A stretch of 42,072 nucleotides of DNA from IMG/VR virus record IMGVR_UViG_3300020231_000007, one strand, 5' to 3'. The notes beneath the pieces were generated by a model. The model was not told where the DNA came from. It saw only the letters and a list, made by a program, of their open reading frames with translations, and made no database searches. This DNA is from a virus. A program made the translations under genes and the position numbers. Positions 24,697 to 38,255 of the stretch are shown here, piece by piece. Every line of letters begins with the position of its first letter. Position 1 is the stretch's first letter.

Positions 24697-24726
24697 ACTA
24701 TACTATTGTATGAGTGATACAGTCAA
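24697..24726 (-). promoter_or_regulatory. Internal leftward promoter with 17-bp dyad operator (site 1)
   Basis: Minus-strand reading: TTGACT-18 nt-TATAGT. The dyad TTGTATGAGTGATACAG (24706-24722) fills the spacer. Confidence 0.6.
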
Positions 24727-25046
24727 GCATCTTTTATTAATTCTTTTGTATCGGCGTATAGCGCAACTAATGCACTATCAGGGTCATTGTATTTCTCCAA
24801 TTTCCCCCACCCTTTTCTGATCTCAGTTCGATACTTGTAGTTGAGCGTATACCATCCCCCGCCATCGAATGACGTGCACGTTATAATAGTGCCCTTCGGA
24901 TAGGGCTTTCTAAACTCCTCCAGAATTTCAGCAATAGTAGGGATCTTCCCCAACGCCTCTTCCTCCGGATCATCCTCAACTGTCAAGCTGAGCTTAACTT
25001 CCTCTTCGTCCAAAACTTCTTCATTGATATTTATTTCTTCAATCAT
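24723..25046 (-). CDS. Hypothetical protein with highly acidic N-terminus (107 aa from MIEEININ..)
   Basis: AAAGGA lies 8 nt before the ATG at 25046. The track start at 25088 would overlap the upstream ORF by 50 nt. Confidence 0.55.
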   Translation of the reverse strand: MIEEININEEVLDEEEVKLSLTVEDDPEEEALGKIPTIAEILEEFRKPYPKGTIITCTSFDGGGWYTLNYKYRTEIRKGWGKLEKYNDPDSALVALYADTKELIKDA

Positions 25047-25221
25047 TATTTGATCCTTTCGTGTTGGGTAAGGGAGTGATGGAAACAATCTCTAATTGAC
25101 AATCATGCGCTCTTTGGAACTCTACCCATGATTCCTCAATATCGTCAGTAGTGAAAAACTTGGTAGCGTTAGTATTATGCTTTAGACCATAAACTATATA
25201 CTTAACAAAATATTTAATCAT
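25039..25221 (-). CDS. Hypothetical protein (60 aa)
   Basis: ATGA overlap with the upstream gene. Confidence 0.5.
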   Translation of the reverse strand: MIKYFVKYIVYGLKHNTNATKFFTTDDIEESWVEFQRAHDCQLEIVSITPLPNTKGSNND

Positions 25222-25511
25222 AAACCCTCAGCTATAAAATAACATTCTGATCCAGAACCGGACCGTTTACGATAAGCGATTATTCGCCCCCATTGCCAGT
25301 ATTCAAATATAACACCTTTCGCCGATACGCCACTCAACTTATACTTATTCTGGTATCGATCAAAATAGTTGTTGGTAACTTCAATGCAATCTATATCCGC
25401 GCCGTGGATATCAACTTCGATTACCGGCTTCTTAGATAATATTAAATGATGCATGCAATATCCATGTTGATAATGCTTAGCTCCACAGTAGTAAACTTCA
25501 CATTCTTTCAC
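25218..25511 (-). CDS. Hypothetical protein with N-terminal C-x4-C...GYC-x2-H zinc motif (97 aa)
   Basis: The CEVYYCGAKHYQHGYCMHH motif resembles the zinc knuckle often found at the N-terminus of phage HNH-associated proteins. No nuclease core is visible. Confidence 0.55.
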   Translation of the reverse strand: MKECEVYYCGAKHYQHGYCMHHLILSKKPVIEVDIHGADIDCIEVTNNYFDRYQNKYKLSGVSAKGVIFEYWQWGRIIAYRKRSGSGSECYFIAEGL

Positions 25512-25526
25512 TGGTCAATCTTCCCC

Positions 25527-25745
25527 TCAATAACTAGGACCATAACTTAAGCCTAGTAACACTTGTACTTTCTTTGAATGTTGCTTATTTTTAAAAGCAC
25601 GACGTAGTATCCCGATATCCTCATAGCACTGATCCAAAGCTCTGATAGCGACTGTGCAAGGATGATCATGTAAATCCGAACCATCGCTCAAATCTTCTGA
25701 TGCTATCCCTTCTAGTAGTTCTTTTAATTCATCAATGTTCATCAA
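25527..25745 (-). CDS. Hypothetical protein (72 aa)
   Basis: Overlaps the end of the upstream gene; packed operon. Confidence 0.5.
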   Translation of the reverse strand: MMNIDELKELLEGIASEDLSDGSDLHDHPCTVAIRALDQCYEDIGILRRAFKNKQHSKKVQVLLGLSYGPSY

Positions 25746-26115
25746 TCTTCTCCTTTATTAGTAGTTCTGGGTTTTCGTAAATGCTGCCTATGACCTCAAC
25801 GGTACGCGGCCAGTCAGCAGTTTTAAAATTAAAATTATTCGACCATTCATTCATATCTCTAACAAACTCAGCATCAAAACTAGCGCTCGGCTCATGCCAG
25901 ACAACTTTACATATTCTCCCAGACGTATTAGCAAATAGTAATAGATCGCCTTCACAAATATCTTCACCATTCTTATCTTCTAGTCCTGTGTACTGTTCTG
26001 CTGTTAACCCGTTTCTAACTTGCTCCCAGAACCAATCTCCTCTAGTAACCGAATCCCAAGTGATAAACTCTTTATCCTGTGGTACCCAAGCCCGATATTT
26101 AGTTGTTCGCATCAA
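25732..26115 (-). CDS. YopX-family protein
   Basis: KYRAW...., QYTGLEDKNGEDICEGDLL and VIGSIYENPELL are hallmark YopX motifs. Confidence 0.85.
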   Translation of the reverse strand: MMRTTKYRAWVPQDKEFITWDSVTRGDWFWEQVRNGLTAEQYTGLEDKNGEDICEGDLLLFANTSGRICKVVWHEPSASFDAEFVRDMNEWSNNFNFKTADWPRTVEVIGSIYENPELLIKEKIDEH

Positions 26116-26791
26116 TCTTCCCCTTCATCTTCTTCATTGCCTGGTCTATAGTCTCACCTTTTTCTGGATGCCAGGAAACGCACCCATGCTCGTTATTGTA
26201 GATACTCCCACCCGCAGAGTCACCGAAAAATTGTATATCACAAGCAGGGCACTCTTCTCTAAACCTATCTACAAATGACTGCATGGTTGGCACTTCAGGT
26301 TTTTCACATTTCAGAAAACCATCAAGAATCGCAAGAATGTTGCATGTCCCTGCTGCGTATATTTTACGCTGTTTACGAATACATTTACCTTTTTTATTTA
26401 TGAATTCGATGTATTCTATTTTTATGTTTTCGTCATAGTGGTATTCATCCATGTACGGGTTTTCAAGATTGTCTTGGATGCCTACTAGAACCTCCGTTAG
26501 CTCATCATCTTCATCAGGCTCAAGAACTCCCTGCTCTATGGACACAACTTCAGAGTATTTCTTTTCAAGCTCTGTAATCTTTTCGGCTATAGCAGCATAG
26601 ATTTTATAATTGGTACGCTGGCCACACATGTATTGAATCGATACCGAATCAAACACATCATTTTTAAAAACTATTCTTACATCGGATTCCGTAAGACTGC
26701 TTTTAACCTTAACCTCTAACTCCTTATCCTGGTTGACCATGTATCCATAGATAGCAGTAGTCTTTTTATTCTCATCGATCAGTATTGTCAT
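26099..26791 (-). CDS. Hypothetical protein (230 aa)
   Basis: AAGGTGG RBS. No family recognised. Confidence 0.65.
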   Translation of the reverse strand: MTILIDENKKTTAIYGYMVNQDKELEVKVKSSLTESDVRIVFKNDVFDSVSIQYMCGQRTNYKIYAAIAEKITELEKKYSEVVSIEQGVLEPDEDDELTEVLVGIQDNLENPYMDEYHYDENIKIEYIEFINKKGKCIRKQRKIYAAGTCNILAILDGFLKCEKPEVPTMQSFVDRFREECPACDIQFFGDSAGGSIYNNEHGCVSWHPEKGETIDQAMKKMKGKIDANN

Positions 26792-26817
26792 TTGTTGCCA
26801 CCTTATTTAGTTTGTTT

Positions 26818-26855
26818 AATCCAGATACTTTTTAGGAATCCAGATACTTTTTGAG
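26818..26855. repeat. Perfect 16-nt unit AATCCAGATACTTTTT repeated in tandem with 19-nt period
   Basis: Copies at 26818-26833 and 26837-26852, in the 91-nt gap upstream (minus sense) of gene 26099..26791. Confidence 0.9.
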
Positions 26856-26882
26856 AATTTAGTTACTAACCCATTTGGTGTA

Positions 26883-27125
26883 TTAATTTTTATCTATTGC
26901 ATAACCGCCTTGAAACCATGTACTTTGATATTGGTTCTGGAATTTACCCGTACCGCAAAACATAACCCCCATAACCTCATAGTCGTTTCCTGATTTTGGA
27001 ACAGGCATTTTAGAGTTATTGATAGCCTCGTAACAAGTTTTCATGTCAGGCATAGCAGTTCTAAACCTTTCATTCTTGCTATTATCATCATGTAAAATTA
27101 TGTATAAAAATATTACTTCAAGCAT
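26883..27125 (-). CDS. Hypothetical protein with N-terminal hydrophobic segment (80 aa)
   Basis: ORF in the packed operon. MLEVIFLYIIL is anchor-like. Confidence 0.55.
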   Translation of the reverse strand: MLEVIFLYIILHDDNSKNERFRTAMPDMKTCYEAINNSKMPVPKSGNDYEVMGVMFCGTGKFQNQYQSTWFQGGYAIDKN

Positions 27126-27128
27126 TAC

Positions 27129-27320
27129 CTAACCCCTCTCGTTAATTAATTTACCAGCCGAATAAACCATAACCCTAAGCCTTCCATTAGCCGCTCTAAC
27201 CTGATTGACAGTGATTGGCAACTGATCCTCAGTCACTTCAGAAAACCACTCTTGGGCAGCCTTGAGCGTCTTAATATCGTGATTGGTTTCTGTGCATGAT
27301 GATCCTCTAGGGCATTGCAT
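27129..27320 (-). CDS. Hypothetical protein (63 aa from MQCPRGSSC..; track version extends to 27371)
   Basis: AAGGAG lies 10 nt upstream of the ATG at 27320. The longer version overlaps the hidden ORF 27322..27492 by 50 nt. Confidence 0.5.
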   Translation of the reverse strand: MQCPRGSSCTETNHDIKTLKAAQEWFSEVTEDQLPITVNQVRAANGRLRVMVYSAGKLINERG

Positions 27321-27321
27321 A

Positions 27322-27492
27322 TTATTTGGTCTCCTTAAACTTCTTCGGTTTAAAATATTTCTTCTGCTCAACTTCTATTCGAGCATTCAATTCTTTATTT
27401 ATACTAGACTTTAAAACAACCAACTCATCATTAGTACACCAGTTAATCAGTTGCTTACTCTTAGTCCAGAATGTTTTTCTTAATTTGTCCAT
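27322..27492 (-). CDS. Hidden 56-aa ORF (MDKLRKTFWTKSKQLINWCTNDELVVLKSSINKELNARIEVEQKKYFKPKKFKETK)
   Basis: Below the track cutoff. AAAGG RBS. Its stop lies 1 nt before the ATG at 27320. Confidence 0.45.
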   Translation of the reverse strand: MDKLRKTFWTKSKQLINWCTNDELVVLKSSINKELNARIEVEQKKYFKPKKFKETK

Positions 27493-27996
27493 TATTTACC
27501 TTTGGATCAGCCATAGTTCTGCCTTTACTCCCTTCTTGATATACCCACAGGCTTAGTTTATTTCTCTTAACTAGAACCGTGGATCAAGCATTATGGGATT
27601 CAACTCCAACCACACTATGTGGCTTCAATGTAGAGTGCCATGTTGCAAAGGCTAAACAGTTGCATGGACTTTCGCTGCCTTATATCCTCCGAGACAAGAC
27701 GTTTGCATTATGATGACTCTTGATGCCTATTCTCACCAAATCACCGTTACATGTTAAATAGGGGCTTGTAGCTCTTGCCTGATTGTTATTTTGAGAGCAT
27801 TAAGGCGAAAGTATCCATTGCTCTTAAATTCAGATAGTTCCAAAATGGAAACGACTGATTATCGAATAATGACTAGCAAGTTTTAGGAGGATTAATAGGA
27901 TTTGAAGCTGGAAGGATTTGTGGTATTATTTCCCACAGCTTGGTTGCTATTAACCTCGTAGGCTTGCCGGCCAATGATCGAGGTTTTTCTAATTTA
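27493..27996 (-). ncRNA. About 500-nt non-coding, hairpin-rich stretch inside the dense leftward operon (function unknown)
   Basis: All three minus-strand frames are full of stops, and only antisense artefact ORFs appear on the + strand. Hairpins, written as minus-strand sequence at + strand coordinates, include AGCCACA-TAG-TGTGGTT (27609-27625), CCATG...CATGG, TGTGG-GAAATAATA-CCACA (27918-27936) and ACCTCG..20 nt..CGAGGT (27953-27984). Confidence 0.4.
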
Positions 27997-28191
27997 TTAC
28001 TTTTTCTGATCTTTGTCTATTTGTTTGTATCCCCACTCAAACATATTAAATGCACACTCTTTGCAGTATTCCTCTTTCTGACTGTCATCCATCTGACCCC
28101 ACTCCTTCGCATCTACAGTTATTTCATCAGCACACATACTACCAACACAATCAGTTCTTACATAAACCTCAATTGTTATCTCCTCACCCAT
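27997..28191 (-). CDS. Cassette A small Cys-rich acidic protein (64 aa from MGEEITIEVY..; track start 28203)
   Basis: GGAGGA lies in the conserved leader. It ends ..KQIDKDQKK with a double stop TAATAA, shared with cassette B. Confidence 0.6.
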   Translation of the reverse strand: MGEEITIEVYVRTDCVGSMCADEITVDAKEWGQMDDSQKEEYCKECAFNMFEWGYKQIDKDQKK

Positions 28192-28192
28192 T

Positions 28193-28375
28193 TCATCCTC
28201 CATTGCCTGTATTGGCTACTTTTTTTTCAACTCTAAATAAAGACCATCGCCCATCTTTGAGCCAGAAATCACCAAAGCAATCAACATATAACTTTACTGT
28301 TTGGCCGCTCACTACATCAGTAAACCGAGTCTCGACAAAAGTGAGGCTAAAATAACTTTTCAATAACCGTTTCAT
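28193..28375 (-). CDS. Hypothetical protein (60 aa), preceded by leader copy C
   Basis: Leader TATACAGGCAATGGAGATTACGAAATG. The 3' end overlaps leader A. Confidence 0.55.
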   Translation of the reverse strand: MKRLLKSYFSLTFVETRFTDVVSGQTVKLYVDCFGDFWLKDGRWSLFRVEKKVANTGNGG

Positions 28376-28406
28376 TTCGTAATCTCCATTGCCTGTATAA
28401 AATCAG

Positions 28407-28619
28407 TTAATACCCTTCAAATTCTGGTATCTCGTCAAATTGCTCTTGAGTCATTAAAACAGGCTCTAGTACTGGCATACCCTCATCAGACTCAATATGT
28501 GAATCAAACCAGTGAGACATATCGTTTAATACGCCATCTAAAGTGTCTACGTAATATCTGTTTCCAGTAGATTCTTTATCTTGATAAACTTTATAAAACA
28601 CCTTCGTATGTTTGCTCAC
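28407..28619 (-). CDS. Hypothetical acidic protein (70 aa, GTG start)
   Basis: GAGGA lies 6 nt before the GTG. Confidence 0.5.
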   Translation of the reverse strand: MSKHTKVFYKVYQDKESTGNRYYVDTLDGVLNDMSHWFDSHIESDEGMPVLEPVLMTQEQFDEIPEFEGY

Positions 28620-28640
28620 AATTAATCCTCGCTGGTTAAA

Positions 28641-28886
28641 CTAATCTCTACCTTCATAATATTCGCAGCGGGTACACTCCCAAAGCTGCGCATGAGGGGG
28701 TTTATTTTGCTTCATATCATGCCCACCAACGCAATAAACGTCATAGTGATATGAGATGTTTGTGGTGAATTTGAAGGTCTTAAGGCAGCTCAAGCAGTCT
28801 TGTTCATTGTCATCTTCGTACCCTTGGCCGTCATCATGAATAATTTCGATCTCACATTTACAATATGGACAGTGCACGTCTGACAT
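28641..28886 (-). CDS. Double zinc-ribbon protein (81 aa from MSDVHCPYCK..)
   Basis: GGAGGGG lies 3 nt before the ATG at 28886. Cys pairs CPYC...CLSC and C..C. Confidence 0.6.
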   Translation of the reverse strand: MSDVHCPYCKCEIEIIHDDGQGYEDDNEQDCLSCLKTFKFTTNISYHYDVYCVGGHDMKQNKPPHAQLWECTRCEYYEGRD

Positions 28887-29064
28887 ATCCCCTCCGATTA
28901 AACAACAGCCACAGAAATCCATGACTAATTATTGAGCCGATTAGCTGGGAAACGATTTGAAATGTTAGGAAGGTTCTTGCTATACTTGCCGTAGGTCCGG
29001 CGGGGGTAGTACTTTCCTTTTGTTTTCAAACTGCTTCCGACGCAAACCGGACTTGACTAACTTA

Positions 29065-29214
29065 TTACTTTTTCTGATCTTTGTCTAGCTTGGCTTTAAT
29101 AATATCAGGCCAGCTGTTTAGCTTTATCTTAAGCCCGTCAGTGTATTGGACCTCTACGCCAACCAGCCCTAGACATATAATATAAAACCCTAAACAAAGT
29201 ATTACTCTCATCAT
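29065..29214 (-). CDS. Cassette B hidden 49-aa protein with N-terminal hydrophobic or signal-like segment
   Basis: Sequence MMRVILCLGFYIICLGLVGVEVQYTDGLKIKLNSWPDIIKAKLDKDQKK. It has the same 25-nt leader and the same 31-nt 3' block (DKDQKK, TAATAA) as cassette A. Confidence 0.55.
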   Translation of the reverse strand: MMRVILCLGFYIICLGLVGVEVQYTDGLKIKLNSWPDIIKAKLDKDQKK

Positions 29215-29238
29215 TTCATCCTCCATTGCCTGTATTAG

Positions 29239-29412
29239 TTAAACTATTGCTCTTTTAATGTCGTTATCTCTCTGAGCATCAGTCATTGATTCCCATCGAT
29301 CAAATTCAAAGTTATGCTGATCAAGCGTTTTTTGATTCTCTTCACAGCATTCTTTGCAGTAGCCTTCATATATCTCTTCAGATTCAAAACTACATTGAGG
29401 GCAATCAAACAT
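29239..29412 (-). CDS. Zinc-ribbon protein (57 aa from MFDCPQCSF..), preceded by leader copy D
   Basis: Leader AATAGAGCAATGGAGAATGAAATG. Cys motifs CPQC...CKECC. The track start at 29439 overlaps the upstream gene. Confidence 0.55.
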   Translation of the reverse strand: MFDCPQCSFESEEIYEGYCKECCEENQKTLDQHNFEFDRWESMTDAQRDNDIKRAIV

Positions 29413-29428
29413 TTCATTCTCCATTGCT

Positions 29429-29659
29429 CTATTCGTCAAACTTTAAAGAAGCAGGATAATTCAAAGCAAGCCAAGCAATGCACAATTCTTTGAACTTCAC
29501 TTTGTCTATTATTCCAATTTGATCGACGTACACAAAGACTTTATTTTTTCTGCTAACGAATTGAATATTACTTGATGAATCTCTAACACCAATAAATTTA
29601 TCATTAGTATCTGTGATGTACTCAAGAGTGTCTTTATGTATCTCTGTAACGTCACCCAT
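29429..29659 (-). CDS. Hypothetical protein (76 aa)
   Basis: AAGGTGAAAG then ATG, inside the upstream gene end. Confidence 0.55.
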   Translation of the reverse strand: MGDVTEIHKDTLEYITDTNDKFIGVRDSSSNIQFVSRKNKVFVYVDQIGIIDKVKFKELCIAWLALNYPASLKFDE

Positions 29660-29903
29660 CTTTCACCTTCTCAGCAAGTTGATCTATCTTAATACTCAGT
29701 GTTGCAATTATCCCCAATAAGGGTTGGTAGACTTCGCTAGCAATGTAAGAAGCTTGGTCAGCAGTAAAGGAAGCATTACATTCGAGATCATTAGCAAGCT
29801 CTCTAGGGTTCGGCATACATTCAAATACTTGCGCTGTACTACATATCTGGCAACCAACACCTAGCAAACTATCCTTCGTCGAGCAATCGCATCTAAACTT
29901 CAT
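29652..29903 (-). CDS. Hypothetical Cys-rich protein (83 aa)
   Basis: Packed operon ORF. Confidence 0.55.
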   Translation of the reverse strand: MKFRCDCSTKDSLLGVGCQICSTAQVFECMPNPRELANDLECNASFTADQASYIASEVYQPLLGIIATLSIKIDQLAEKVKDG

Positions 29904-29928
29904 CTTCAGTCATCCTGTTATCTTTTTG

Positions 29929-30324
29929 TTAAATGATATTATTTTCAACCCACGATCTCATCCTTACCCATCGACCTGACGGAGCTTCGTCGCGGTAGGG
30001 ACACCATTCGTCATTCAGATAAACAATTTCCATTGCCAAAGCTTCTGAAATATTAAAAGCTTTAGCAATGTCGGTAGATTCATCAGGGTCAAGATTTGAC
30101 ATATCAATACCGCGAGCATTGCCAACAACCCCAAGCGCGCAATATTCACCGTCAGCTTCAAGTGCATGAGCTATTAAGCTCTTTACCCGCATTTTATCCA
30201 TGCTGTCCGCTAACTCAGTCAGTAGAGCTTGCCCTCTTTTACCTCTGATTCCTGCCTTTACAGCTCCCCGCCAGCGAATCAGCTCCCAATTGTCTAACTC
30301 TTCACTGTATCCGCTTCTGCTCAT
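29929..30324 (-). CDS. Conserved phage protein of unknown function (131 aa)
   Basis: MSRSGYSEELDNWELIRWRGAV...IRGKRGQA.L.EL...D....K.LIAH.LE..GE.CA.G.VG.ARGIDMS..DP matches a widespread phage family I know only as hypothetical. Confidence 0.7.
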   Translation of the reverse strand: MSRSGYSEELDNWELIRWRGAVKAGIRGKRGQALLTELADSMDKMRVKSLIAHALEADGEYCALGVVGNARGIDMSNLDPDESTDIAKAFNISEALAMEIVYLNDEWCPYRDEAPSGRWVRMRSWVENNII

Positions 30325-30494
30325 GATTATCCTTTGTTTGGGTGACAGAGGCCCCGCGCTACTGGGGCAGTAGTATCGCTAGCGCTAACTGGCAATACTA
30401 TCAAAGCAATATAGGCTCATTTTCTTTTTCCAGCCCAAGGTGGTCGCGACTCTACCTTATAAATATTACTCACGCTTGCAACTCTGTCATTAAA

Positions 30495-30587
30495 TGGGGC
30501 GGTAGATGGGATTCGAACCCACCCGATATCATATTGCCCAGGGCCATCATATCGCTTGGACTATTAAGCTATTAAGCCACTACCGCC
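30495..30587 (-). tRNA. tRNA-like element: perfect acceptor stem, canonical T-arm and encoded CCA, but no canonical D or anticodon arms
   Basis: Minus strand: GGCGGTAGTGGCTTAATAGCTTAATAGTCCAAGCGATATGATGGCCCTGGGCAATATGATATCGGGTGGGTTCGAATCCCATCTACCGCCCCA. The acceptor is GCGGTAG/CTACCGC, with U8, T-arm GTGGG-TTCGAAT-CCCAT, discriminator C and CCA. The body contains the tandem GCTTAATA x2 and a 31-nt hairpin flanked by ATATGAT x2. I could not place a 5-bp/7-nt anticodon arm in any register. Confidence 0.5.
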
Positions 30588-30599
30588 ATTAAATCGTTA

Positions 30600-30845
30600 T
30601 TAGCCAACATCAACCCAATCATCTGCCAGCATGTCAGTCTGCGAGGCAAGCCAGGGCACTAGCGACTTGGGAGCCGCTTCGTTGTCTGTCTGCAAACCCG
30701 TAGTATCAATAAAAATATACGGGCTAGTCATCTTGCTGTTTTCGTCTGGCACCTGTAGCTCAATAAAAATACCTTTGCCGTTCCAGCCTTCTCTTGCTAC
30801 TTTTCGACCGGCCTTTAGTTCATGTATTGCTTCACCAAAATTCAT
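30600..30845 (-). CDS. DUF2829-family protein (the family that includes Thoeris anti-defence Tad2)
   Basis: MNFGEAIHELKAGRKVAREGWNGKGIFIELQ ... WLASQTDMLADDWVDV is the characteristic DUF2829 signature. AGAGGA RBS. Confidence 0.75.
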   Translation of the reverse strand: MNFGEAIHELKAGRKVAREGWNGKGIFIELQVPDENSKMTSPYIFIDTTGLQTDNEAAPKSLVPWLASQTDMLADDWVDVG

Positions 30846-31038
30846 ATGTACGTCCTCTTATTTCATTAAATGTTAAGTATTAATTTACCCCTCTGTCGCC
30901 ATCGTTGGGGCACCGACTGTAAGGGATCAAAAACCCTTGGCTTGATGATTATTCACATGCTCAGAGAAAACTCTACTACTCTCTAACACGCCTACTACAA
31001 AGTAAGGATTTACTTAGGTAGTGTTACATGCATTGCGA

Positions 31039-31224
31039 TCACCCGACGCGTTCTACGTAACCGTTTCTTCTATACTGAATACCCTTTTTTGCAATACTAC
31101 TTTTCAATTGAGAATGATAGGTCTTATCTTCAATGTCAGCAACGCGAGCCGGGGTAGCATCCAATCCAATTAAAATGATCAGTATTGCAAGCAGGGCCAA
31201 AACTATTTTAGTTGTCTTGCTCAT
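31039..31224 (-). CDS. Small membrane-anchored protein (61 aa)
   Basis: N-terminal TM segment IVLALLAILIILIGL. ATGA overlap with the upstream gene. Confidence 0.6.
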   Translation of the reverse strand: MSKTTKIVLALLAILIILIGLDATPARVADIEDKTYHSQLKSSIAKKGIQYRRNGYVERVG

Positions 31225-31766
31225 GATTCTAGATCCTGGTAGTAGGGCACATACTTGCCATTAGTCCTGAAACGATCCATATAGAAAAACTGATTCATTC
31301 CAATCTCAGTGGTTTCAATGTGAACATTTTCGGGGACTAAAAACTTCAAGGCTTGACTGTGGTATAAGGCGAGTATCTCTAACTCATGATGAGCTACTAG
31401 AAAAGTCCCATCATGATTAAAATCTTTCTCAACTATATGCGTTATTCTACGCTTGTTTCGATCCGTATCGGGGTCAATGTCGTCGAATGCAACAAAGCCG
31501 GTCAACCATTCCAAGTACTGTTCTTTGGTTACTAGATCGCAAAGTCTCATCAATCGCTGACGCAGCACTATAGCATGCCTCTTTTTAACCATAGCGTGTT
31601 CCTGGTTTAACTCATCCAGCAGCCGATTTTGTTCCTTCTCCTCTCTCTTTTCTTGTACCTGCACTCTCAAGCGATTAGTTGCCGATAATTTCTTACTTTC
31701 CATACCAAAAGAATCGCCCTTGTCTTTAAGTATTAGTGGGTGAAAACCGCTCATTAGATCGTTCAT
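31221..31766 (-). CDS. First gene of the leftward early operon, hypothetical (181 aa)
   Basis: AAAGGTGG RBS, about 35 nt downstream of the leftward promoter. Confidence 0.65.
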   Translation of the reverse strand: MNDLMSGFHPLILKDKGDSFGMESKKLSATNRLRVQVQEKREEKEQNRLLDELNQEHAMVKKRHAIVLRQRLMRLCDLVTKEQYLEWLTGFVAFDDIDPDTDRNKRRITHIVEKDFNHDGTFLVAHHELEILALYHSQALKFLVPENVHIETTEIGMNQFFYMDRFRTNGKYVPYYQDLES

Positions 31767-31806: not shown

Positions 31807-31835
31807 AACTTAATGTATCACTCATACATAGTCAA
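31807..31835 (-). promoter_or_regulatory. Leftward early promoter with 17-bp dyad operator (site 2)
   Basis: Minus-strand reading: TTGACT-17 nt-TAAGTT. The spacer is exactly the dyad ATGTATGAGTGATACAT (31813-31829). Confidence 0.6.
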
Positions 31836-31858: not shown

Positions 31859-31887
31859 TTGACGGTTAGCTATATGAGTGATACGTT
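31859..31887 (+). promoter_or_regulatory. Rightward early promoter with 17-bp dyad operator (site 3)
   Basis: TTGACG-17 nt-TACGTT. The dyad CTATATGAGTGATACGT (31870-31886) overlaps the -10. Confidence 0.55.
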
Positions 31888-31903: not shown

Positions 31904-32536
31904 ATGAGATTGTTAAACATGCCAGGCAAGAAGAAGACTAAAAGTAAAACTCCCGAAAATGTATTAGCTAATCAAGATGCGTATCTGGAAAGGCAGTCCG
32001 AGTCTAAGATCAATAGACGCCAGTATCTGATACCAGATAGGGATCATCCAATGATGGAAGATAAGGCTAAACAGTTGAGGGCAGATTACAGAGAGGAATT
32101 TAGCATAGCCCATCAGGAACAAACCAAAAAAGAACAGCAAACTTGTGGAACTATTAAAAGATGTGATTACTGTGGAGAAAAGAAGGCAGTTTCATTTTTT
32201 CGCAAAAGTAGATCCACGAAAGACGGCTATACTGATACGTGCAAACCTTGTAGGTATAGGGAAAGAAATAGACTAATTGAACCAATTAAAAATAGATCTA
32301 AGCCTAAGCCTAAGCCTAAACCTAAGCCCAAGTCTAAGCCCAAGTCTAAGCCTGTGCGGGATCGCTCTAAAACCAATAAAAGATGCGCTTTTTGTAATAC
32401 AACTAAGCCTGTTGCATCATTTTCGAGGAATGACAACTGTAAAGATGGCTATCTGTATAAGTGTAAGGCCTGTACTAATCAGCACAATACAGACAAACGT
32501 ACAGTAAAACATTTTAAAGAATACAAAGGTCAATAA
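31904..32536 (+). CDS. Basic protein with two CxxC...F...KDGY...CKxC zinc-ribbon modules joined by a (KP/KS)n linker (210 aa)
   Basis: The two modules are RCDYCGEKKAVSFFRKSRSTKDGYTDTCKPCRYR and RCAFCNTTKPVASFSRNDNCKDGYLYKCKACTNQ. It is the first gene of the rightward operon. Confidence 0.7.
   Translation: MRLLNMPGKKKTKSKTPENVLANQDAYLERQSESKINRRQYLIPDRDHPMMEDKAKQLRADYREEFSIAHQEQTKKEQQTCGTIKRCDYCGEKKAVSFFRKSRSTKDGYTDTCKPCRYRERNRLIEPIKNRSKPKPKPKPKPKSKPKSKPVRDRSKTNKRCAFCNTTKPVASFSRNDNCKDGYLYKCKACTNQHNTDKRTVKHFKEYKGQ
32300..32353 (+). repeat. Nine tandem hexanucleotide units (AAGCCT and variants) encoding KPKPKPKPKPKSKPKSKP
   Basis: Read directly; in frame within 31904..32536. Confidence 0.9.
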
Positions 32537-32555
32537 ATAAATGGAGGAATGAGCA

Positions 32556-32753
32556 ATGATTAATATAGTCGAAGAAGATGTGCCAGTGTTTGAAGCAAAT
32601 GGAACTCAATGCATGACTGTCGAGCATCATAACGTAGCTATGAATGCGCAGGTTTTACAGTTCGAAATAGCGTTGGAGTTAATTCTAAAACAGCATGGCA
32701 TAGCAGTGGAGCAGCCAGAGCAAACTAGCGAGTTCATCAGCACGATTCAATAA
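32556..32753 (+). CDS. Hypothetical protein (65 aa)
   Basis: ATGGAGGAATGAGCA then ATG, a strong GGAGGA RBS. Confidence 0.55.
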   Translation: MINIVEEDVPVFEANGTQCMTVEHHNVAMNAQVLQFEIALELILKQHGIAVEQPEQTSEFISTIQ

Positions 32754-32769
32754 AGGGAAGGGGAAAATT

Positions 32770-33030
32770 ATGGGGCAGCTTGACTGGTGTACTACAGAGT
32801 TCTTACCGAAAGACGACGCGGAAACGATTGAGCTTTTTGAAACACTCAAGGAGTTTAAATTGAAACCATATCATCACATTGATGGGGAAAAGTTTGTGAT
32901 CATGTTTGCCAATCCTTGGCAAGCAACTGACTACATCTGCAAATTCAATGAACTGTATGGGCGATTTCCAACGCAGTACGAAGACGTAGAAAACCCAGCA
33001 ATGGAAATGGAGATTCCAAATGATTCCTGA
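32770..33030 (+). CDS. Hypothetical protein (86 aa)
   Basis: GGGAAGGGGA RBS. Confidence 0.6.
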   Translation: MGQLDWCTTEFLPKDDAETIELFETLKEFKLKPYHHIDGEKFVIMFANPWQATDYICKFNELYGRFPTQYEDVENPAMEMEIPNDS

Positions 33031-33373
33031 CTGGATTGATCAAGAACTATGGGAAGGTTTTTTGGAGATCAGGAAAAAGAAAAAAGCTGTTGATTCAAAA
33101 CAAGCCATCCAGCTAATCATTAACAAGCTGATAGGGTTCAGAGAGCAGGGCTTTGATCCAAACGAGATCATTAAAGAATCAATCATGAACAGCTGGAAAA
33201 GTGTTTTTAAACCAAAAAATCAAGGGGGAAACTTTCCCACCAAATCACAAAACGTAGACGATTGGGTTAATAAAGGACCAAAAGATGCAAGATACGAGGA
33301 GGAACAGGTCAGTTTTGAAGGCTTTGCTCGATCAGATGATGGAAGTTTTGGCGAGTCCAAAACCAGTCACTGA
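33020..33373 (+). CDS. Replication-module protein (117 aa); conserved IPDWI...LW..F.E.R.KKK domain
   Basis: The N-terminal motif is common in phage replication and primosome-associated proteins. The exact function is not assignable by eye. Confidence 0.55.
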   Translation: MIPDWIDQELWEGFLEIRKKKKAVDSKQAIQLIINKLIGFREQGFDPNEIIKESIMNSWKSVFKPKNQGGNFPTKSQNVDDWVNKGPKDARYEEEQVSFEGFARSDDGSFGESKTSH

Positions 33374-33947
33374 GCTTTGGTGGAATGCTTTACAGCCATA
33401 CAACATGGAAGATATAGAAAAAGCCTGCACTATCCACCTGACAACTGAAACCTTCGCGCCAACGATAGCTCAATTGATCAAACTGATTACAAAGCACCCA
33501 ACAGCCGAGGAAGCTTGGAACGCTATTCCCAAAAATGAAGAAACCGGCGGGATGGTCAGTACTGAAATGATGGCTGCTTACATCGCTTGTGAAGACAGTA
33601 TGCTCAGGAACGACATGATAGCCGCTAGGATGGCTTTCCTTGAAGCCTACAAGCGAGCGGTAGCCCAAAGTATTGCGCAGCGTAACGAGCCTAATTTTAC
33701 CTACTCAGCGCCAAACCTTGGACCGCCAGATCATCGCGCCAGGCAAAAGCAAAACGCTATCGAATCAGCCAAGGCTTTAGGCTGGATAACAAACGATAGA
33801 GCGCAACTTATGCTTGAGCATACTGAGCAGCAAGATTTCTCTGTCCAGCGTTTGGAGTACGAAGGCACCCAAGGATCATCAGAAGTCAAAACCGAAGCAT
33901 TGAAAGAAATTAGAAATACATTAAAGGGGTTTAAAAGTGCAAATTGA
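33336..33947 (+). CDS. Helicase-loader-like protein (G39P-type N-terminal motif), 203 aa from MMEVLAS..
   Basis: LWWNALQPYNMEDIEKACTIHLTTETFAPTIAQLIKLI resembles the SPP1 G39P loader/inhibitor signature (W..L..Y....v..A.......fPP.iaei). The track start at 33285 overlaps the upstream gene by 89 nt. Confidence 0.5.
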   Translation: MMEVLASPKPVTELWWNALQPYNMEDIEKACTIHLTTETFAPTIAQLIKLITKHPTAEEAWNAIPKNEETGGMVSTEMMAAYIACEDSMLRNDMIAARMAFLEAYKRAVAQSIAQRNEPNFTYSAPNLGPPDHRARQKQNAIESAKALGWITNDRAQLMLEHTEQQDFSVQRLEYEGTQGSSEVKTEALKEIRNTLKGFKSAN

Positions 33948-34137
33948 AGATATCGGCAAAGAGCTGGAACAAATGAAAAAGGAAATAGAAAGGCTGACCG
34001 AGAAATGTGATCTTGGTGATAGGGCTTATAGTCGTGCAGTTAGGTTGCTGGATGAAGCAGACAAACTGATAAACAGTGAAGAGTTCCTAGATAAACTCGT
34101 AGCTAGAATCAGGAACAAACAATTATTTGGGGGTTAG
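33937..34137 (+). CDS. Hypothetical coiled-coil protein (66 aa, GTG start)
   Basis: AAAGGGG RBS. Confidence 0.5.
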   Translation: MQIEDIGKELEQMKKEIERLTEKCDLGDRAYSRAVRLLDEADKLINSEEFLDKLVARIRNKQLFGG

Positions 34138-34138
34138 G

Positions 34139-34324
34139 GTGGCTGATAACAAAGAAGATCTTGAAGAGCAACTGAAACAGCTAGCAATCAAGGTTTGTGA
34201 GCTAAATGGTATTGATCCGTTTGCAAAAATTGAAATCGAACAATGGCAATGGGTGGGGAATGAAGTTATACAATTCCTGGGAGCCGAACCACTAAACGAA
34301 ACACCACAAAAACTGGATAGTTAA
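34139..34324 (+). CDS. Small paralog 1 of the AIE[VL]CKIRG[IL]NP family (61 aa from GTG; track start 34127 TTG)
   Basis: Shares LKQLAIKVCELNGIDPFAKIE with the next two genes. Confidence 0.5.
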   Translation: MADNKEDLEEQLKQLAIKVCELNGIDPFAKIEIEQWQWVGNEVIQFLGAEPLNETPQKLDS

Positions 34325-34609
34325 ATGACTGAAGAACAGGAAATAAATATTGCTTTTGAAGTATGTGAGATTCAAAAACTCAACTGGGAAGAGGCGAAGA
34401 TCGCTATTGAAGTTTGCAAGATAAGAGGGCTAAACCCAAATGAGGACTTGCAACATAAAATAAATGGTACTGATGTTGGCATCCTATCAAGATGGGTATG
34501 GGTGCTCGATGAATGCAAGACAATCATTGAAGTAACTGATGCTATCAGAAGATTAGAAAAGAAAAGAAGTTTAATCCACAGGATAAAAAGGTTTTTTAGA
34601 AATGACTGA
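34325..34609 (+). CDS. Small paralog 2 (94 aa), motif present twice
   Basis: INIAFEVCEIQKLNWEEAKIAIEVCKIRGLNPNEDL. Confidence 0.6.
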   Translation: MTEEQEINIAFEVCEIQKLNWEEAKIAIEVCKIRGLNPNEDLQHKINGTDVGILSRWVWVLDECKTIIEVTDAIRRLEKKRSLIHRIKRFFRND

Positions 34610-34868
34610 AGAAGAACTGAAACAAGCTGCAATCGAACTTTGTAAGATCCGGGGGATTAACCCCTATGAGACATTACCTCACGACCCGTTAAGCGAAGAA
34701 TTGTTTATGCTTTGCAGGTCAAAATGGGAAGAAATGGTAGTTGAGATCAAAACCCACAACGAGATTCAAACTGCAATTAGAAGGGCGGATACTAAAGCCG
34801 TAGTAGGTTACGAAGAGTTCTTTAGTAAATTCGTAAGTGATGCTAGAGAAAAGGCTGAGAATGATTAA
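34602..34868 (+). CDS. Small paralog 3 (88 aa)
   Basis: MTEEELKQAAIELCKIRGINPYETL. It has the same MTEE start as paralog 2. Confidence 0.6.
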   Translation: MTEEELKQAAIELCKIRGINPYETLPHDPLSEELFMLCRSKWEEMVVEIKTHNEIQTAIRRADTKAVVGYEEFFSKFVSDAREKAEND

Positions 34869-34882
34869 TAGGGGGCGATAGG

Positions 34883-35299
34883 GTGGAAATCTTCCTAAAG
34901 AAGCTCAATCCCTCAATACTTCAAGTTTGTGATCCGGCCTCGCAAGAAGCCATCATGAAAATGAAGCTGGGTCAGACTTACAAAGCTAAGGTTACAAGGT
35001 CTCGCAATTATAAGTATCACAAGAAGTTCTTTGCTCTGCTTAACTATGCATTCCACAATCAAGACGTGTACGATAACTTTGATTCCTTCAGGTATGAGTT
35101 GATCATTCAAACAGGGCACTATAGCTGGCATGCAAGCCTTGACGGCAAGAGCTACAAAATAGCCGAGTCGATATCGTTTGATAAAATGGATGCAACCAAG
35201 TTTGAGGAATTGTTTAGTCGGTCGATAGATATTATAATTAAGCACTTTATGCCAACTGCTACCGAAGAAGAGATTCTAAACATTATAGGGTTTGATTAA
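34883..35299 (+). CDS. DUF1367 / NinB-position protein (138 aa, GTG start)
   Basis: The core RSRNYKYHKKFFALLNYAF is typical of the DUF1367 family of lambdoid nin regions. It lies directly upstream of ninG. Confidence 0.6.
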   Translation: MEIFLKKLNPSILQVCDPASQEAIMKMKLGQTYKAKVTRSRNYKYHKKFFALLNYAFHNQDVYDNFDSFRYELIIQTGHYSWHASLDGKSYKIAESISFDKMDATKFEELFSRSIDIIIKHFMPTATEEEILNIIGFD

Positions 35300-35884
35300 G
35301 TGAATAAGATCAAGCCCAAGAAGTGTAAAGTATGCAAGGGGGAATTCGTTCCCTCGAATACGCTGCAAAAAGTTTGTAGTCCGACCTGCGCATTACAGCA
35401 TGTTAGAAAAGAACAGCACAAAGTTCAAAAGAAGAAAGCCATCCAGCAAAGGAAAGAACTCAAGAAAAGGAAGGAAGCTCTTAAAACAAAGTCAGACTGG
35501 ACAAAGGAAGCACAAAAAGAATTCAATGGTTTCATTAAGGAAAGGGACAAAGATTACCACTGCATATCATGTGACAGGGAGCCAGATGGTAAGAAGCTAC
35601 TCAAGCGAGGGGCATACGATGCCGGCCATTATCTCAGCATAGGTGCCAGGTCTCACTTAAGATTCCACGAAGACAATTGTCACAAACAATGCGTATATTG
35701 TAACAGGGAGTTATCAGGAAACGCTGTCGAATACAGAATCAGGCTCATCATAAGAATAGGGCTGGAAAGAGTGGAAGCGCTGGAAAACAATTACACAATC
35801 AAACGGTTTACAATCGATGAATTGAAGGAGATAAAAATTGGATATAAAGAACGAAGAAGAGAAATCAACAAAGATATCACCTAA
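35300..35884 (+). CDS. ninG: NinG / Rap recombination endonuclease
   Basis: Aligns by eye with lambda NinG: C..C...F.P......CS..C, K/R-rich linker, W..EAQK.FN.FI.ERD.D..CISC, DAGHY, LRFHEDN.HKQCV.CN...SGN...YR..L..RIG...VE.LE. Confidence 0.9.
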   Translation: MNKIKPKKCKVCKGEFVPSNTLQKVCSPTCALQHVRKEQHKVQKKKAIQQRKELKKRKEALKTKSDWTKEAQKEFNGFIKERDKDYHCISCDREPDGKKLLKRGAYDAGHYLSIGARSHLRFHEDNCHKQCVYCNRELSGNAVEYRIRLIIRIGLERVEALENNYTIKRFTIDELKEIKIGYKERRREINKDIT

Positions 35885-35900
35885 CCCCAGGAATACAATA

Positions 35901-36047
35901 TTGTTTGAGGATCTCCGGCCTAATCAATTTGTAAGAGGGCACATAATTTGCGGGGGAATGATCCTTAATGTAAATGCATATTTCGATCCGCTTAGGGGTG
36001 TTCAGGTTACTTGCGAAGTCGATGAATTCTTTAACGGTGAGGGTTAA
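35901..36047 (+). CDS. Small hypothetical protein; start uncertain (TTG 35901 after AGGAA, or TTG 35838 as in the track)
   Basis: There is no ATG before residue 41 of the track ORF, and the long version overlaps ninG by 47 nt. Confidence 0.35.
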   Translation: MFEDLRPNQFVRGHIICGGMILNVNAYFDPLRGVQVTCEVDEFFNGEG

Positions 36048-36050
36048 ATC

Positions 36051-36239
36051 ATGATACAGGCTGCAATGTGGATAGCTAGCGTACTGTTCTTGCTGTGGGT
36101 CGCTTTGGTTGTGCTTTGTATGGCATGGCCTATCATAAAAATGCTATGGAACGGCATGACTAGGTGGATCACAAAAGAGGATTTTTACATCACTTTTGCA
36201 ACAATTGGCGTCATAGTGATCGCATCACTAATCTATTGA
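36051..36239 (+). CDS. Small 2-TM membrane protein (62 aa), last gene of the rightward early operon
   Basis: TM segments WIASVLFLLWVALVVLCMAW and ITFATIGVIVIASLIY. Confidence 0.6.
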   Translation: MIQAAMWIASVLFLLWVALVVLCMAWPIIKMLWNGMTRWITKEDFYITFATIGVIVIASLIY

Positions 36240-36266
36240 AATAATCCGCAAGTGTGGTATTGTCAA

Positions 36267-36300
36267 TACTCAACTTCCCCAAGTTGAGTACTGTCTTTGG
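36267..36300 (+). terminator. Intrinsic terminator between the convergent operons
   Basis: Perfect 10-bp stem TACTCAACTT / AAGTTGAGTA with a CCCC loop (36267-36290), followed by CTGTCTTTGGTT. Confidence 0.7.
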
Positions 36301-36353
36301 TTATATTTCTTAGGGCTAGCATCATCCCCCTTAATGGTGTTAGCCCCTTCCAT

Positions 36354-36683
36354 TTAATTACCTAGAATGCCGTGATGCTTCTCAAGTACCACTAACCTCG
36401 CAGATAACTTAGAATTATCTACTACCTGAATTTTACAGACCTCCGAAAGATACTTAAGATCCTCATCCAGTTTATCAAGACTAGCCCCCATTTTTGTTAA
36501 TACACTGCAAGTCGTATCAGTGAACTCAGCTACTTTGTTAGCCAGCTTAGTAATAGGGTTATCAGGATCAATTAAATTATCTCTAGCCTGGAACCAACTC
36601 TCAATATCGTGCGGAGAGCATCTATGGCAAAGACCATCAAGTAGATCCTTGTAATTATTCTTGCATTCTTTACACCTTAACAT
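36354..36683 (-). CDS. Hypothetical protein with N-terminal CxxC...CxxC zinc ribbon (109 aa)
   Basis: AAGGGGA RBS. Last gene of the minus-strand island. Confidence 0.6.
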   Translation of the reverse strand: MLRCKECKNNYKDLLDGLCHRCSPHDIESWFQARDNLIDPDNPITKLANKVAEFTDTTCSVLTKMGASLDKLDEDLKYLSEVCKIQVVDNSKLSARLVVLEKHHGILGN

Positions 36684-36865
36684 TTATATCCCCTTAAGCC
36701 ATTCGTTAGTATTACCAACAAAGCCCAAATTAATGGGCTTGTGTTAGGTTGTTGAACCCCTGCTTAGATTAATTAGTCCATAGTGGAATCCTCCCTGTTA
36801 GTTTATATTTCTCCTCTAATACCCACTTAACCCCCAATTAAGGAGGCTAAGTGGAAAGGTTAAAA

Positions 36866-37276
36866 TCAATCTAAACCACCATAGTAACGAACGCCATATC
36901 CTGACAATTTGAAGCTATCCATGTCATATATGGTGCAATGACCAAGATCTAGTATGACTATCTCCATACCTTCAGGGATAATAATTTTAACTGCATCTAC
37001 CCCACAAAGCCTGCCAAGAGAGAAGCCTTCTTTATTGACAGTGTAAAACCTGTCACCTTCAAAACCATCACTTTCACTAGTTACCTCCCCACCTGCATCG
37101 ATAAAAGGCCCTAACCAGGCATTGTATTCTTTGAGACTAGATGGCCTGCAATAAGCTCTGACATTCTTTAGATTTCTTTCGCTTTCAATGTCCATTTTAC
37201 GGTGTCTTGCCTCCATCTCGGCCCGTTCTTGATTGCGTTTTTTCCTAATCTTTTTCAACTGATCTTCTATACTCAT
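36866..37276 (-). CDS. Hypothetical protein (136 aa)
   Basis: AAGGGGAACAGAGTC then ATG. A 7-bp hairpin AAGCCCA/TGGGCTT lies downstream at about 36730-36749. Confidence 0.6.
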   Translation of the reverse strand: MSIEDQLKKIRKKRNQERAEMEARHRKMDIESERNLKNVRAYCRPSSLKEYNAWLGPFIDAGGEVTSESDGFEGDRFYTVNKEGFSLGRLCGVDAVKIIIPEGMEIVILDLGHCTIYDMDSFKLSGYGVRYYGGLD

Positions 37277-37344
37277 GACTCTGTTCCCCTTGTGTTATTG
37301 ATTGACCTTTTACTTGACGGCGCGAAAATGGTTTACTTGACGTA

Positions 37345-37608
37345 TTAAATATCAAGCCCATCGAAAACATGAAAAACACAATTCTCGGTCTGGTATGTGC
37401 CTATGTATACCCCTGTTTTTTCTGAAATCTTGTGTCCTGTACCATAGGTAAATATCCGATACTCAGTGTCAGCAAATTCAGGGTCAACCTTCAACCACAG
37501 GCACGGCTTGCCATTTTGTATTTGAACATCTAAATATTGAGAACCTGCGGGTGCCTTAATTACTTGAGAGTCAGTAATTTTAAGTTCTATTTTCCAGATT
37601 GTTTCCAT
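37345..37608 (-). CDS. Conserved phage protein of unknown function (87 aa from METIWKIEL..)
   Basis: The motifs W.......V...P.G...L.VQ.Q.G.P.LW..VDP....... F...GTGH.I.......YIGT.Q....VFHVF are a common phage family. The track start at 37683 overlaps the upstream gene. Confidence 0.6.
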   Translation of the reverse strand: METIWKIELKITDSQVIKAPAGSQYLDVQIQNGKPCLWLKVDPEFADTEYRIFTYGTGHKISEKTGVYIGTYQTENCVFHVFDGLDI

Positions 37609-37651
37609 CTTAATTTCCACTTTAGTTGTAAAGTATTGGTTTACTGCTGGC

Positions 37652-37840
37652 TCAATCCGCATAAGCATAAGTATTAATTTCACATCCGCTTATAACTAGA
37701 ATAGAATCATCAGCGAATGTCCATTTAGTGCTTTCGTTTTCAACATCCTGATCAATATCAATAGCTATATCATCAGCTTCATTCATCATTGCGTTAGTAT
37801 TGTCTTTATGAAAACTTACTATCATTTCTGCTTTGTTCAT
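37652..37840 (-). CDS. Highly acidic 62-aa protein
   Basis: By my count 14 D/E versus 3 K and no R. It is the first gene after the promoter at 37878-37906. Confidence 0.55.
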   Translation of the reverse strand: MNKAEMIVSFHKDNTNAMMNEADDIAIDIDQDVENESTKWTFADDSILVISGCEINTYAYAD

Positions 37841-37877
37841 TTTGTTTCCCCTTGCTTGTTTGCTTTAACTTGAAACC

Positions 37878-37906
37878 ATTATGTACTGTATCACTCATAC
37901 AGTCAA
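37878..37906 (-). promoter_or_regulatory. Promoter with 17-bp dyad operator (site 4)
   Basis: Minus-strand reading: TTGACT-17 nt-CATAAT. The dyad is CTGTATCACTCATACAG (37886-37902). Confidence 0.65.
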
Positions 37907-37936
37907 TGGTTTTAATTAATTACTGCTGGCTTAGTA

Positions 37937-38188
37937 TTACTTTACGCACTTGAAGCCATGCTGATTAAACAAAGATCTTACTGTTCCAACATCAGACTTA
38001 AGTTCACTAGTGTTAGTGTCAAAATAAGTTTTAGCTTTCTTCAAACTCTTCTCTTCCATTGCTGAGTAAGTAGCCTGCTTGATTATCGCCTTGCAAGATT
38101 CAACTGTTAAGTAAATCCGCTTCATGGCACCCTTCTCCCAAACCTTTCCGCCAACCTTTAAAACGCTTTCTGTAGTTAGGTTGCTCAT
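37937..38188 (-). CDS. Hypothetical protein (83 aa)
   Basis: AAAGGGAAAG RBS. It has its own promoter at 38227-38255. Confidence 0.6.
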   Translation of the reverse strand: MSNLTTESVLKVGGKVWEKGAMKRIYLTVESCKAIIKQATYSAMEEKSLKKAKTYFDTNTSELKSDVGTVRSLFNQHGFKCVK

Positions 38189-38226
38189 GATCTTTCCCTT
38201 TTGTTTGTTTGTCTTGATTGATATGA

Positions 38227-38255
38227 ATATTAGACTGTATCACTCATACAGTAAA
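38227..38255 (-). promoter_or_regulatory. Promoter with 17-bp dyad operator (site 5)
   Basis: Minus-strand reading: TTTACT-17 nt-TAATAT. The dyad is CTGTATCACTCATACAG (38235-38251). Confidence 0.65.

Follow-up and report, generated by a model that had tools for sequence, protein, structure and literature searches.

Which protein reads a 17-bp near-palindrome that recurs in five predicted promoters of the P22-like phage recorded as IMGVR_UViG_3300020231_000007? The window analyzed here is the whole stretch of DNA under that record, 42,072 nucleotides long. A first-pass annotation of the sequence had described the five copies as a dyad with 6-bp arms and had considered the global control of early transcription by one operator to be unusual. 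This was overstated: one repressor over every early promoter is the normal design in lambda, P22 and P1, and the unusual part here is that no binder can be recognized. The kind of system, a repressor with its operator set, is well known; what would be new is a repressor invisible to current family libraries. We lean towards the explanation that the near-palindrome is the operator of one phage-encoded, sequence-specific DNA-binding protein, from a family that escapes current profile libraries. A clean operator set in a complete genome with no recognizable DNA-binding regulator is a well-defined place for finding a new repressor family, and it offers five target sites, a few small basic candidates and one natural inverted-core variant.

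Five copies of one site

The five coordinates and sequences reported for the dyad were all exact on re-checking, and all five sites are intergenic:

24706–24722, minus strand: putative operator copy 1, CTGTATCACTCATACAA on the minus strand; 25.9 bits; core polarity opposite to that in the other four promoters
31813–31829, plus strand: putative operator copy 2, ATGTATCACTCATACAT; fills the spacer of the leftward early promoter (PL); 25.2 bits
31870–31886, minus strand: putative operator copy 3, ACGTATCACTCATATAG on the minus strand; overlaps the spacer and −10 element of the rightward early promoter (PR); 24.9 bits
37886–37902, plus strand: putative operator copy 4, consensus CTGTATCACTCATACAG; 28.5 bits
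38235–38251, plus strand: putative operator copy 5, consensus CTGTATCACTCATACAG; 28.5 bits

The 15-mer TGTATCACTCATACA is present exactly at 24707–24721 (minus), 31814–31828 (plus), 37887–37901 (plus) and 38236–38250 (plus), and with two mismatches at 31871–31885 (minus). When up to three mismatches are allowed, it gives 9 strand-hits, every one from the five sites, against a mean of 1.46 in shuffled sequence, where 0 of 100 shuffles reach 9. The arm-only pattern of the first-pass annotation is by itself not significant (11 matches, 7.7 expected), and the significance of the set is therefore owed to the conserved centre. We built a weight matrix from seven known sites, namely the five in the window and two in a relative (contigs L237 and L242, described below). 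The five sites score 24.9–28.5 bits, whereas the best unrelated position in the window scores 9.1 bits and the maximum on shuffled genomes is 16.3 bits. The motif scan over the genome thus returns exactly five sites, with no weaker extras above 9.1 bits.

The dyad itself is real, although its symmetry is wider than the 6-bp arms first described: it is an odd palindrome of 17 bp with 7/8 positions paired. Read about the middle base as CTGTATCA-C-TCATACAG, the symmetry is broken solely at positions 7 and 11 (C and C). The inner 12 bases, TATGAGTGATAC, are invariant in 5/5 copies, variation being restricted to positions 1–3 and 16–17. In the seven-site set, positions 3–5 and 7–12 are invariant, and the consensus base is found at position 1 in 4 sites, at position 2 in 4 and at position 17 in 5. 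The PL and PR sites read ATGT..ACAT and CTAT..ACGT, CTG/CAG being gone from both arms.

The sites within predicted promoters

As first proposed, each site lies within the spacer or −10 region of a predicted sigma70-like promoter (TTGACx-17/18-TAnnnT, by consensus matches) that faces the adjacent gene. Two of the sites indeed cover the divergent pair PL and PR, one covers an internal leftward promoter, and the other two belong to promoters of an island of small genes beside the terS-like gene:

24697–24726, minus strand: predicted internal leftward promoter, TTGACT-18-TATAGT, 10/12 consensus; first gene 24235–24672, then recombination genes
31807–31835, minus strand: predicted PL, TTGACT-17-TAAGTT; first gene 31221–31766, then the left operon
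31859–31887, plus strand: predicted PR, TTGACG-17-TACGTT; first gene 31904–32536, then the replication/nin operon
37878–37906, minus strand: predicted promoter P4, TTGACT-17-CATAAT; AcrF2-like gene 37652–37840, DUF7352 gene, and genes for 136-aa and 109-aa proteins
38227–38255, minus strand: predicted promoter P5, TTTACT-17-TAATAT; would drive the 83-aa gene 37937–38188

At 30–40 nt downstream of each of the five predicted promoters come a ribosome-binding site and the start codon (ATG) of the neighboring gene. A generic promoter scan was uninformative overall, with 50 matches against 49.8 expected; two of the five promoters with a site are among the seven top-scoring (10-of-12) matches in the 20-kb early region.

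Relative to a fixed point of the −35 element, the site starts at 0, 0, 0, +2 and +7 bp, and its core, read with transcription, is GAGTG in four promoters and CACTC in the remaining one. A varying offset and a flipped polarity point to the behavior of an operator; a promoter element would be expected to keep both. The sequence thus supports reading it as an independently placed operator within promoters. The centres of sites 2 and 3, in PL and PR, lie 57 bp from each other, and no gene intervenes. The rightward promoter predicted ahead of the packaging genes, TTGACT-16-TATACT (38354–38381), is a strong match and lacks the site. The overall picture is apparently one of five early units that share one site and a late unit that is free of it.

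An inverted core in a relative

The 181-aa first product of PL (31221–31766) has a single homolog, 61% identical, on the 1.4-kb contig L237; L242, from a second sample, has the same sequence, the two samples being SRR7467840 and JGI 3300022670. The layout of L237 matches that of the window, with the zinc-ribbon gene, a spacer region of 137–151 bp and the 181-aa gene placed back to back. Both sites of the divergent pair are present, and in this one relative the dyad is therefore conserved. The −35 and −10 hexamers of PL and PR are maintained, those of PR being identical. The PR operator is identical at 15/17 positions, and the remaining spacer differs, with GTTAGC in the window and AATATC in L237. 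At PL, the window has ATGTATGAGTGATACAT and the relative CCGTACCACTCATACAG; all three central G are replaced by C, which converts GAGTG into CACTC and restores the same 13-bp core in the opposite orientation.

Between the window and L237, the non-operator intergenic DNA is 86% identical, the 65-aa gene 98% identical in DNA and the zinc-ribbon product 44% identical in protein. Since the PL flip requires three coordinated, exactly complementary transversions amid 86% identity, drift is a very unlikely cause. Selection, or conversion from another copy, would keep the core intact, and both orientations would work. The inverted PL core, which comes from one independent lineage, may be regarded as the strongest available sign of function.

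The 65-aa product of the second PR gene (32556–32753, plus strand; 50–247 in L237) is very acidic, with an isoelectric point (pI) of 4.3 and one basic residue. Its 98% DNA identity, compared with the 44–61% protein identity of its neighbors, marks a sharp mosaic boundary.

A possible shut-off of early transcription

In the mechanism that we propose, a putative repressor, most simply a dimer, would sit between or over the −35 and −10 elements of the five sigma70-type promoters and block RNA polymerase. PL, PR, the internal leftward promoter and the two promoters of the anti-defence-type island would then share one negative control on all non-structural transcription, and the site-free late promoter (38354–38381) would escape repression. 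The outcome would be negative feedback on early expression while the late promoter runs. The island sites are perfect and those of PL and PR each depart from the consensus at two or three of their outer positions, which may produce an ordered shut-off, the island first and PL and PR later. Such an order would resemble the action of lambda Cro on early genes, or that of the Aca repressors on anti-CRISPR operons. We infer here that a protein binds the site, that it is of phage origin, that it represses, and that its affinity tracks the consensus match. The sequence itself shows the sites, their exclusivity, their promoter setting with variable offset and polarity, their persistence in one relative, and a genome lacking known repressor, integrase and partition families. 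A role in lytic shut-off is favored over lysogeny maintenance, because there are no genes for lysogeny or plasmid maintenance and because the 65-aa protein (32556–32753) has no match in 185,579 GTDB species genomes, and hence no prophage relatives.

Candidate binders

We scanned the approximately 71 open reading frames (ORFs) against Pfam, PHROGs and NCBIfam. In agreement with the first-pass annotation, no CI/Cro-type helix-turn-helix (HTH) protein, S24 peptidase, integrase or partition protein was detectable. Neither was any protelomerase, ribbon-helix-helix (RHH) or LexA/CI peptidase family, nor was there any HTH, Cro/CI or S24 family in the operator-flanking genes or in any early ORF. The ORFs inside non-coding gaps look like noise. 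A few proteins of unknown function are basic, among them those encoded at 31904–32536 and 37937–38188. Each of these two comes first behind a promoter with the site, so that it would regulate its own synthesis. They are the most plausible candidate binders, and the first was already the example named in the first-pass annotation:

31904–32536, plus strand: candidate binder A, first PR gene, 210 aa, pI 10.0; two Stc1-type zinc ribbons, (KP)n linker
37937–38188, minus strand: candidate binder B, 83 aa, pI 9.6; sole gene between P5 and P4; predicted small alpha/beta fold

The N-terminal 80 residues of the 210-aa protein have no homolog except in L237. An exhaustive search revealed that the Stc1-type ribbon is a common repeat, found in tandem arrays of up to nine per protein; of 38 sampled ribbon matches, 30 hit Stc1, and HNH or endonuclease VII domains are present in six. 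A nucleic-acid-binding role for the 210-aa protein is plausible. Its AF2 single-sequence model is poor (pLDDT 59) and unusable for a structure search, and we found no homolog of the protein in IMG/VR and none in a sequence search of solved structures. A more specific proposal, attractive and at the same time doubtful, is that the operator reader is a protein of a fold new as a phage repressor, namely this first PR product with its nuclease-free Stc1-type zinc ribbons. It would act as a Cro analog on the asymmetric 13-bp core and shut every early operon, including the anti-defence island. If such a protein does bind the site, this would provide a function for a widespread repeat module that is now mostly seen beside HNH nucleases.

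The model of the 83-aa protein is confident (pLDDT 87.6) and displays a small alpha/beta fold; a sequence search of solved structures gave nothing significant, with one match at E 0.14. The tblastn search of the small basic ORFs against isolated phages returned nothing, and the 181-aa protein (31221–31766) has no match in IMG/VR.

Several observations speak against an operator read by a phage protein of this sort. The invariant asymmetric centre (CACTC) is unexpected for a simple symmetric homodimer that contacts the outer arms alone, and a recognizable DNA-binding fold was found in no candidate ORF. The zinc-ribbon protein of L237 has one ribbon instead of two and is 44% identical, yet the operator is unchanged. 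The 83-aa model matches no solved DNA-binding structure, its structural matches being uncharacterized phage proteins alone, and the four homologs of this protein in other phages sit behind promoters without the dyad. Conservation alone is also a weak argument, since there is one independent relative and the whole intergenic region is conserved.

Two observations concern other small proteins. The 56-aa basic ORF at 27322–27492 (minus strand) contains the segment LKSSINKEL, weakly similar to YQSAINKAI, the recognition helix of lambda Cro. This similarity falls short of significance in a pairwise comparison (E 0.63), and no family, solved-structure or phage homolog was found for the ORF. The 181-aa PL product (31221–31766, minus strand) and the 136-aa island protein (36866–37276, minus strand) are paralogs (24% over 134 residues, E 2e-09), and neither has any family assignment.

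Other possible readers of the site

Another host transcription factor, distinct from LexA, might recognize the 13-bp core GTATCACTCATAC and tie early expression to host physiology; we consider this unlikely. Such a factor would agree with the lack of a recognizable phage-encoded DNA-binding domain, and an invariant core of 12–13 bp is typical where a site must match a pre-existing host protein that does not co-evolve with it. However, the core is not known to fit any regulator motif, and a phage without lysogeny functions would pay heavily for having all its early genes repressed by a host protein. A 15-mer scan of 596 Gb of GTDB genomes gave scattered single matches, as by chance, and no recurrent promoter-associated gammaproteobacterial site. 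The exact 17-mer in IMG/VR gave scattered, chance-like matches alone, and the paired-site pattern in IMG/VR and JGI metagenomes found mostly unrelated hairpins. One lambda-like immunity region (L216) in the paired-site scan has TATCACTCATA in a different register. A literature search for the site sequence found nothing relevant.

The first-pass annotation had offered the resemblance to SOS boxes as a functional clue. It is improbable that host LexA, alone or with a small phage co-factor as in Bacillus phage GIL01, holds early transcription off until SOS induction. The two consensus copies do carry arms, (T)ACTGTAT...ATACAGT(A), like the ends of gammaproteobacterial SOS boxes, with the flanking TA...TA partly present, and they differ by roughly one inserted base from the E. 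coli recA box. The host is also probably a gammaproteobacterium, since the single-stranded DNA-binding protein (SSB) of the phage, the sole host clue, shares ~65% identity with SSBs encoded on the chromosomes of many Gammaproteobacteria.

Neither the spacing nor the conservation profile, however, agrees with LexA. When LexA is bound to DNA, its two DNA-binding domains are packed against each other and gauge the spacing. Each of the five sites has the form CTGT-N9-ACAG or a degenerate version of it, and CTGT-N8-ACAG occurs zero times in the window, so that the genome has no canonical box. In gammaproteobacterial SOS boxes, the outer CTG/CAG is fixed and the AT-rich centre is loose; here the order is reversed, as the outer C, T and G (positions 1, 2 and 17 of the seven sites) vary and the inner 12 bp are fixed, and the PL and PR sites keep CTG/CAG on neither arm. 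The phage also has no lysogeny or plasmid-maintenance function for which SOS control makes sense. The SOS-box resemblance thus does not hold up as a functional clue, and the lesson is that CTGT...ACAG arms alone are no proof of SOS control. CTGT-N8-ACAG is at chance level in 80 gammaproteobacterial ssb loci, which makes this spacing survey uninformative. The gammaproteobacterial box is CTGT-N8-ACAG, including that of a deep-sea Shewanella (PMC4471891), and no mention of an N9 form was found in the literature search. GIL01, which is without a CI-type repressor, relies on the LexA of its host, and gp7 of the phage enables that LexA to occupy a non-canonical half-site (PMC4551915, PMC6182141); no gp7-like or LexA-like protein is detectable in the window. 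This co-factor precedent (PMC4551915) is the reason why we do not rate LexA as less probable still.

A further possibility, which is a sub-case of the phage-encoded repressor and to which we give similarly little credence, is an RHH phage protein missed by the profiles, which would read the centre of the site with its beta-ribbon in the major groove. An invariant centre suits such central major-groove reading, and the half-sites GTATGA/TCATAC equal those of the operator of E. coli NikR, an RHH protein. Two related loci from Oscillospiraceae metagenome-assembled genomes, L014 (1893–1937) and L050 (~2494–2545), carry GTGTATCACTCATACAC twice, inverted, the copies lying within and immediately downstream of a TTGAyA-17-TATACT promoter that is flanked by a pair of small RHH-type genes. 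This 15-mer match may be a coincidence, as about a thousand chance matches are expected in the 596-Gb scan. Moreover, a profile of four Oscillospiraceae RHH proteins gave a best E-value of 0.41 against all 449 ORFs of the window. No Pfam RHH family was found at E up to 10 in eight small ORFs, the N-terminal fragment of the zinc-ribbon protein or its L237 counterpart, the sensitivity for this fold being low.

Finally, the sites might be relics of a lost immunity region, or recombination or nuclease targets with an asymmetric core, with no present role in transcription: PL and PR do stand back to back without a gene between them, where lambdoid phages keep cI, and symmetric arms around an identical asymmetric core recall recombinase sites, but this reading is highly improbable, since decay would be expected, yet all five copies agree over their inner 12 bp and the core is retained in the relative, including the three-base coordinated flip; the same gene-less PL–PR arrangement in the relative argues against a recent deletion, all five copies coincide with promoters, no recombinase is encoded, and no known tyrosine or serine recombinase uses a site as short as 6-bp arms with a 5-bp core.

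Comparison with known regulatory systems

The phage-encoded repressor that we favor has its closest counterpart in the CI–Cro systems of lambda and P22, which likewise use 17-bp pseudo-palindromic operators with an odd centre that overlap divergent sigma70 PL and PR promoters, and in which one protein turns down both early operons, as proposed here; the flanking gene content is also lambdoid. Unlike lambda and P22, the present phage has one operator per promoter instead of three adjacent ones, with no further site above 9.1 bits. It lacks cI, cro or any CI/Cro-type HTH gene, has nothing in the 57 bp between its PL and PR sites, and places three copies elsewhere. The invariant part of the site is here the centre, whereas in lambda it is the outer TATCAC.

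The Aca regulators of anti-CRISPR operons may offer a second parallel, in that a strong early promoter of what may be an anti-defence-type island has a dyad in its core and rapid negative feedback would be expected after a burst of expression. In contrast to the Aca systems, no HTH-type Aca gene is present in or near the operon (the five island proteins have no HTH), and the same dyad is also found on the main early operons. The C1 system of P1 is similar in that many operators of the same length (17 bp) are scattered at separate promoters of a non-integrating phage. The P1 operators, however, are asymmetric, without dyad symmetry, and unlike in P1, no C1 homolog, plasmid partition or lysogeny function was found in the PHROGs and Pfam scans of the early and structural genes. 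GIL01 shares the lack of a CI-type repressor, an SOS-box-like dyad in an early promoter and a non-integrating lifestyle (PMC4551915, PMC6182141); its dinBox1 nearly matches the host consensus, whereas the spacing and conservation of the present site disagree with the gammaproteobacterial box.

The genome and its setting

The first 141 bases of the window are identical to its last 141, a signature of a circular k=141 assembly, and therefore the genome is complete and circular in assembly, with a length of 41,931 bp. Two Mariana/hadal samples, JGI 3300009102 and SRA run SRR6057436, each yielded the same genome (99.99–100% identical); the SRA run is listed among ocean-trench metagenomes (PMC11136905). 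The three other contigs with these genes represent the same genome (99.99–100%) and therefore add no independent evidence.

This deep-sea phage is P22-like, as it encodes P22-type portal, coat and scaffold proteins together with a large terminase (TerL). Pfam, PHROGs and NCBIfam scans identified a lambdoid recombination block with a YqaJ exonuclease and the SSB on the left side, and an O-like protein, a helicase loader, NinB and NinG on the right side. Megablast found no nucleotide match of the genome to an isolated phage, and no isolate phage, IMG/VR contig or plasmid encodes a TerL that is more than 50% identical. The distant terL relatives are high-GC, and their top repeat families include nothing comparable to the repeated promoter dyad.

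The island, the left operon and the packaging region

The dyad is present in both predicted island promoters, P4 and P5. Under P4, the AcrF2-like gene (37652–37840, minus strand) scores 26.2 bits against a Pfam cut-off of 27 and is thus sub-threshold; it is accompanied by the DUF7352 gene (37345–37683, minus strand). The anti-defence flavor of the island derives from these two matches. In the left operon, the gene at 30600–30845 (minus strand) is Tad2-like (Pfam E 1e-24). The island and the rightward early operon converge on one element:

36313–36346, no strand assigned: bidirectional terminator-like hairpin at the convergence of the rightward early operon and the leftward island; bounds two of the controlled units

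Two genes may encode the small terminase. The product of 38503–38940 (plus strand) has 145 aa, bears an HTH and matches the PHROGs terS family (E 5e-11). The ORF at 39347–39778 (plus strand) encodes 143 aa without a family and overlaps the terL start, the position of P22 gene 3. Between P5 and the terS-like gene, TTAGTACNATCGTWCCA occurs as three direct repeats (38286–38302, 38384–38400 and 38453–38469, plus strand), the third of which is nearly palindromic (GTAC-N4-GTAC), and the operator-free promoter at 38354–38381 sits among them. These repeats could be a control site of the late promoter or a pac or TerS-binding array.

A tRNA-like element lies in a 275-bp gap of the left operon (30498–30587, minus strand), with an 8-bp acceptor stem, an encoded CCA, the canonical T-arm GGTGGGTTCGAATCCCATC and a long extra arm. 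ARAGORN made no call, and the Rfam tRNA-Sec model gave 27.1 bits against a cut-off of 47 (E 0.022). A 504-bp stretch of the same operon without a called gene (27493–27996) holds the T-arm-like GGAGTTGAATCCC and matches nothing in Rfam even at E up to 1. Finally, three small genes of the left operon share a repeated 30-nt block (28189–28218, 29212–29241 and 29410–29439) that spans their ribosome-binding sites and opening codons (MEDEM.../MENEM...); recombination or duplication among DUF7167-type paralogs probably left this block behind as a scar.

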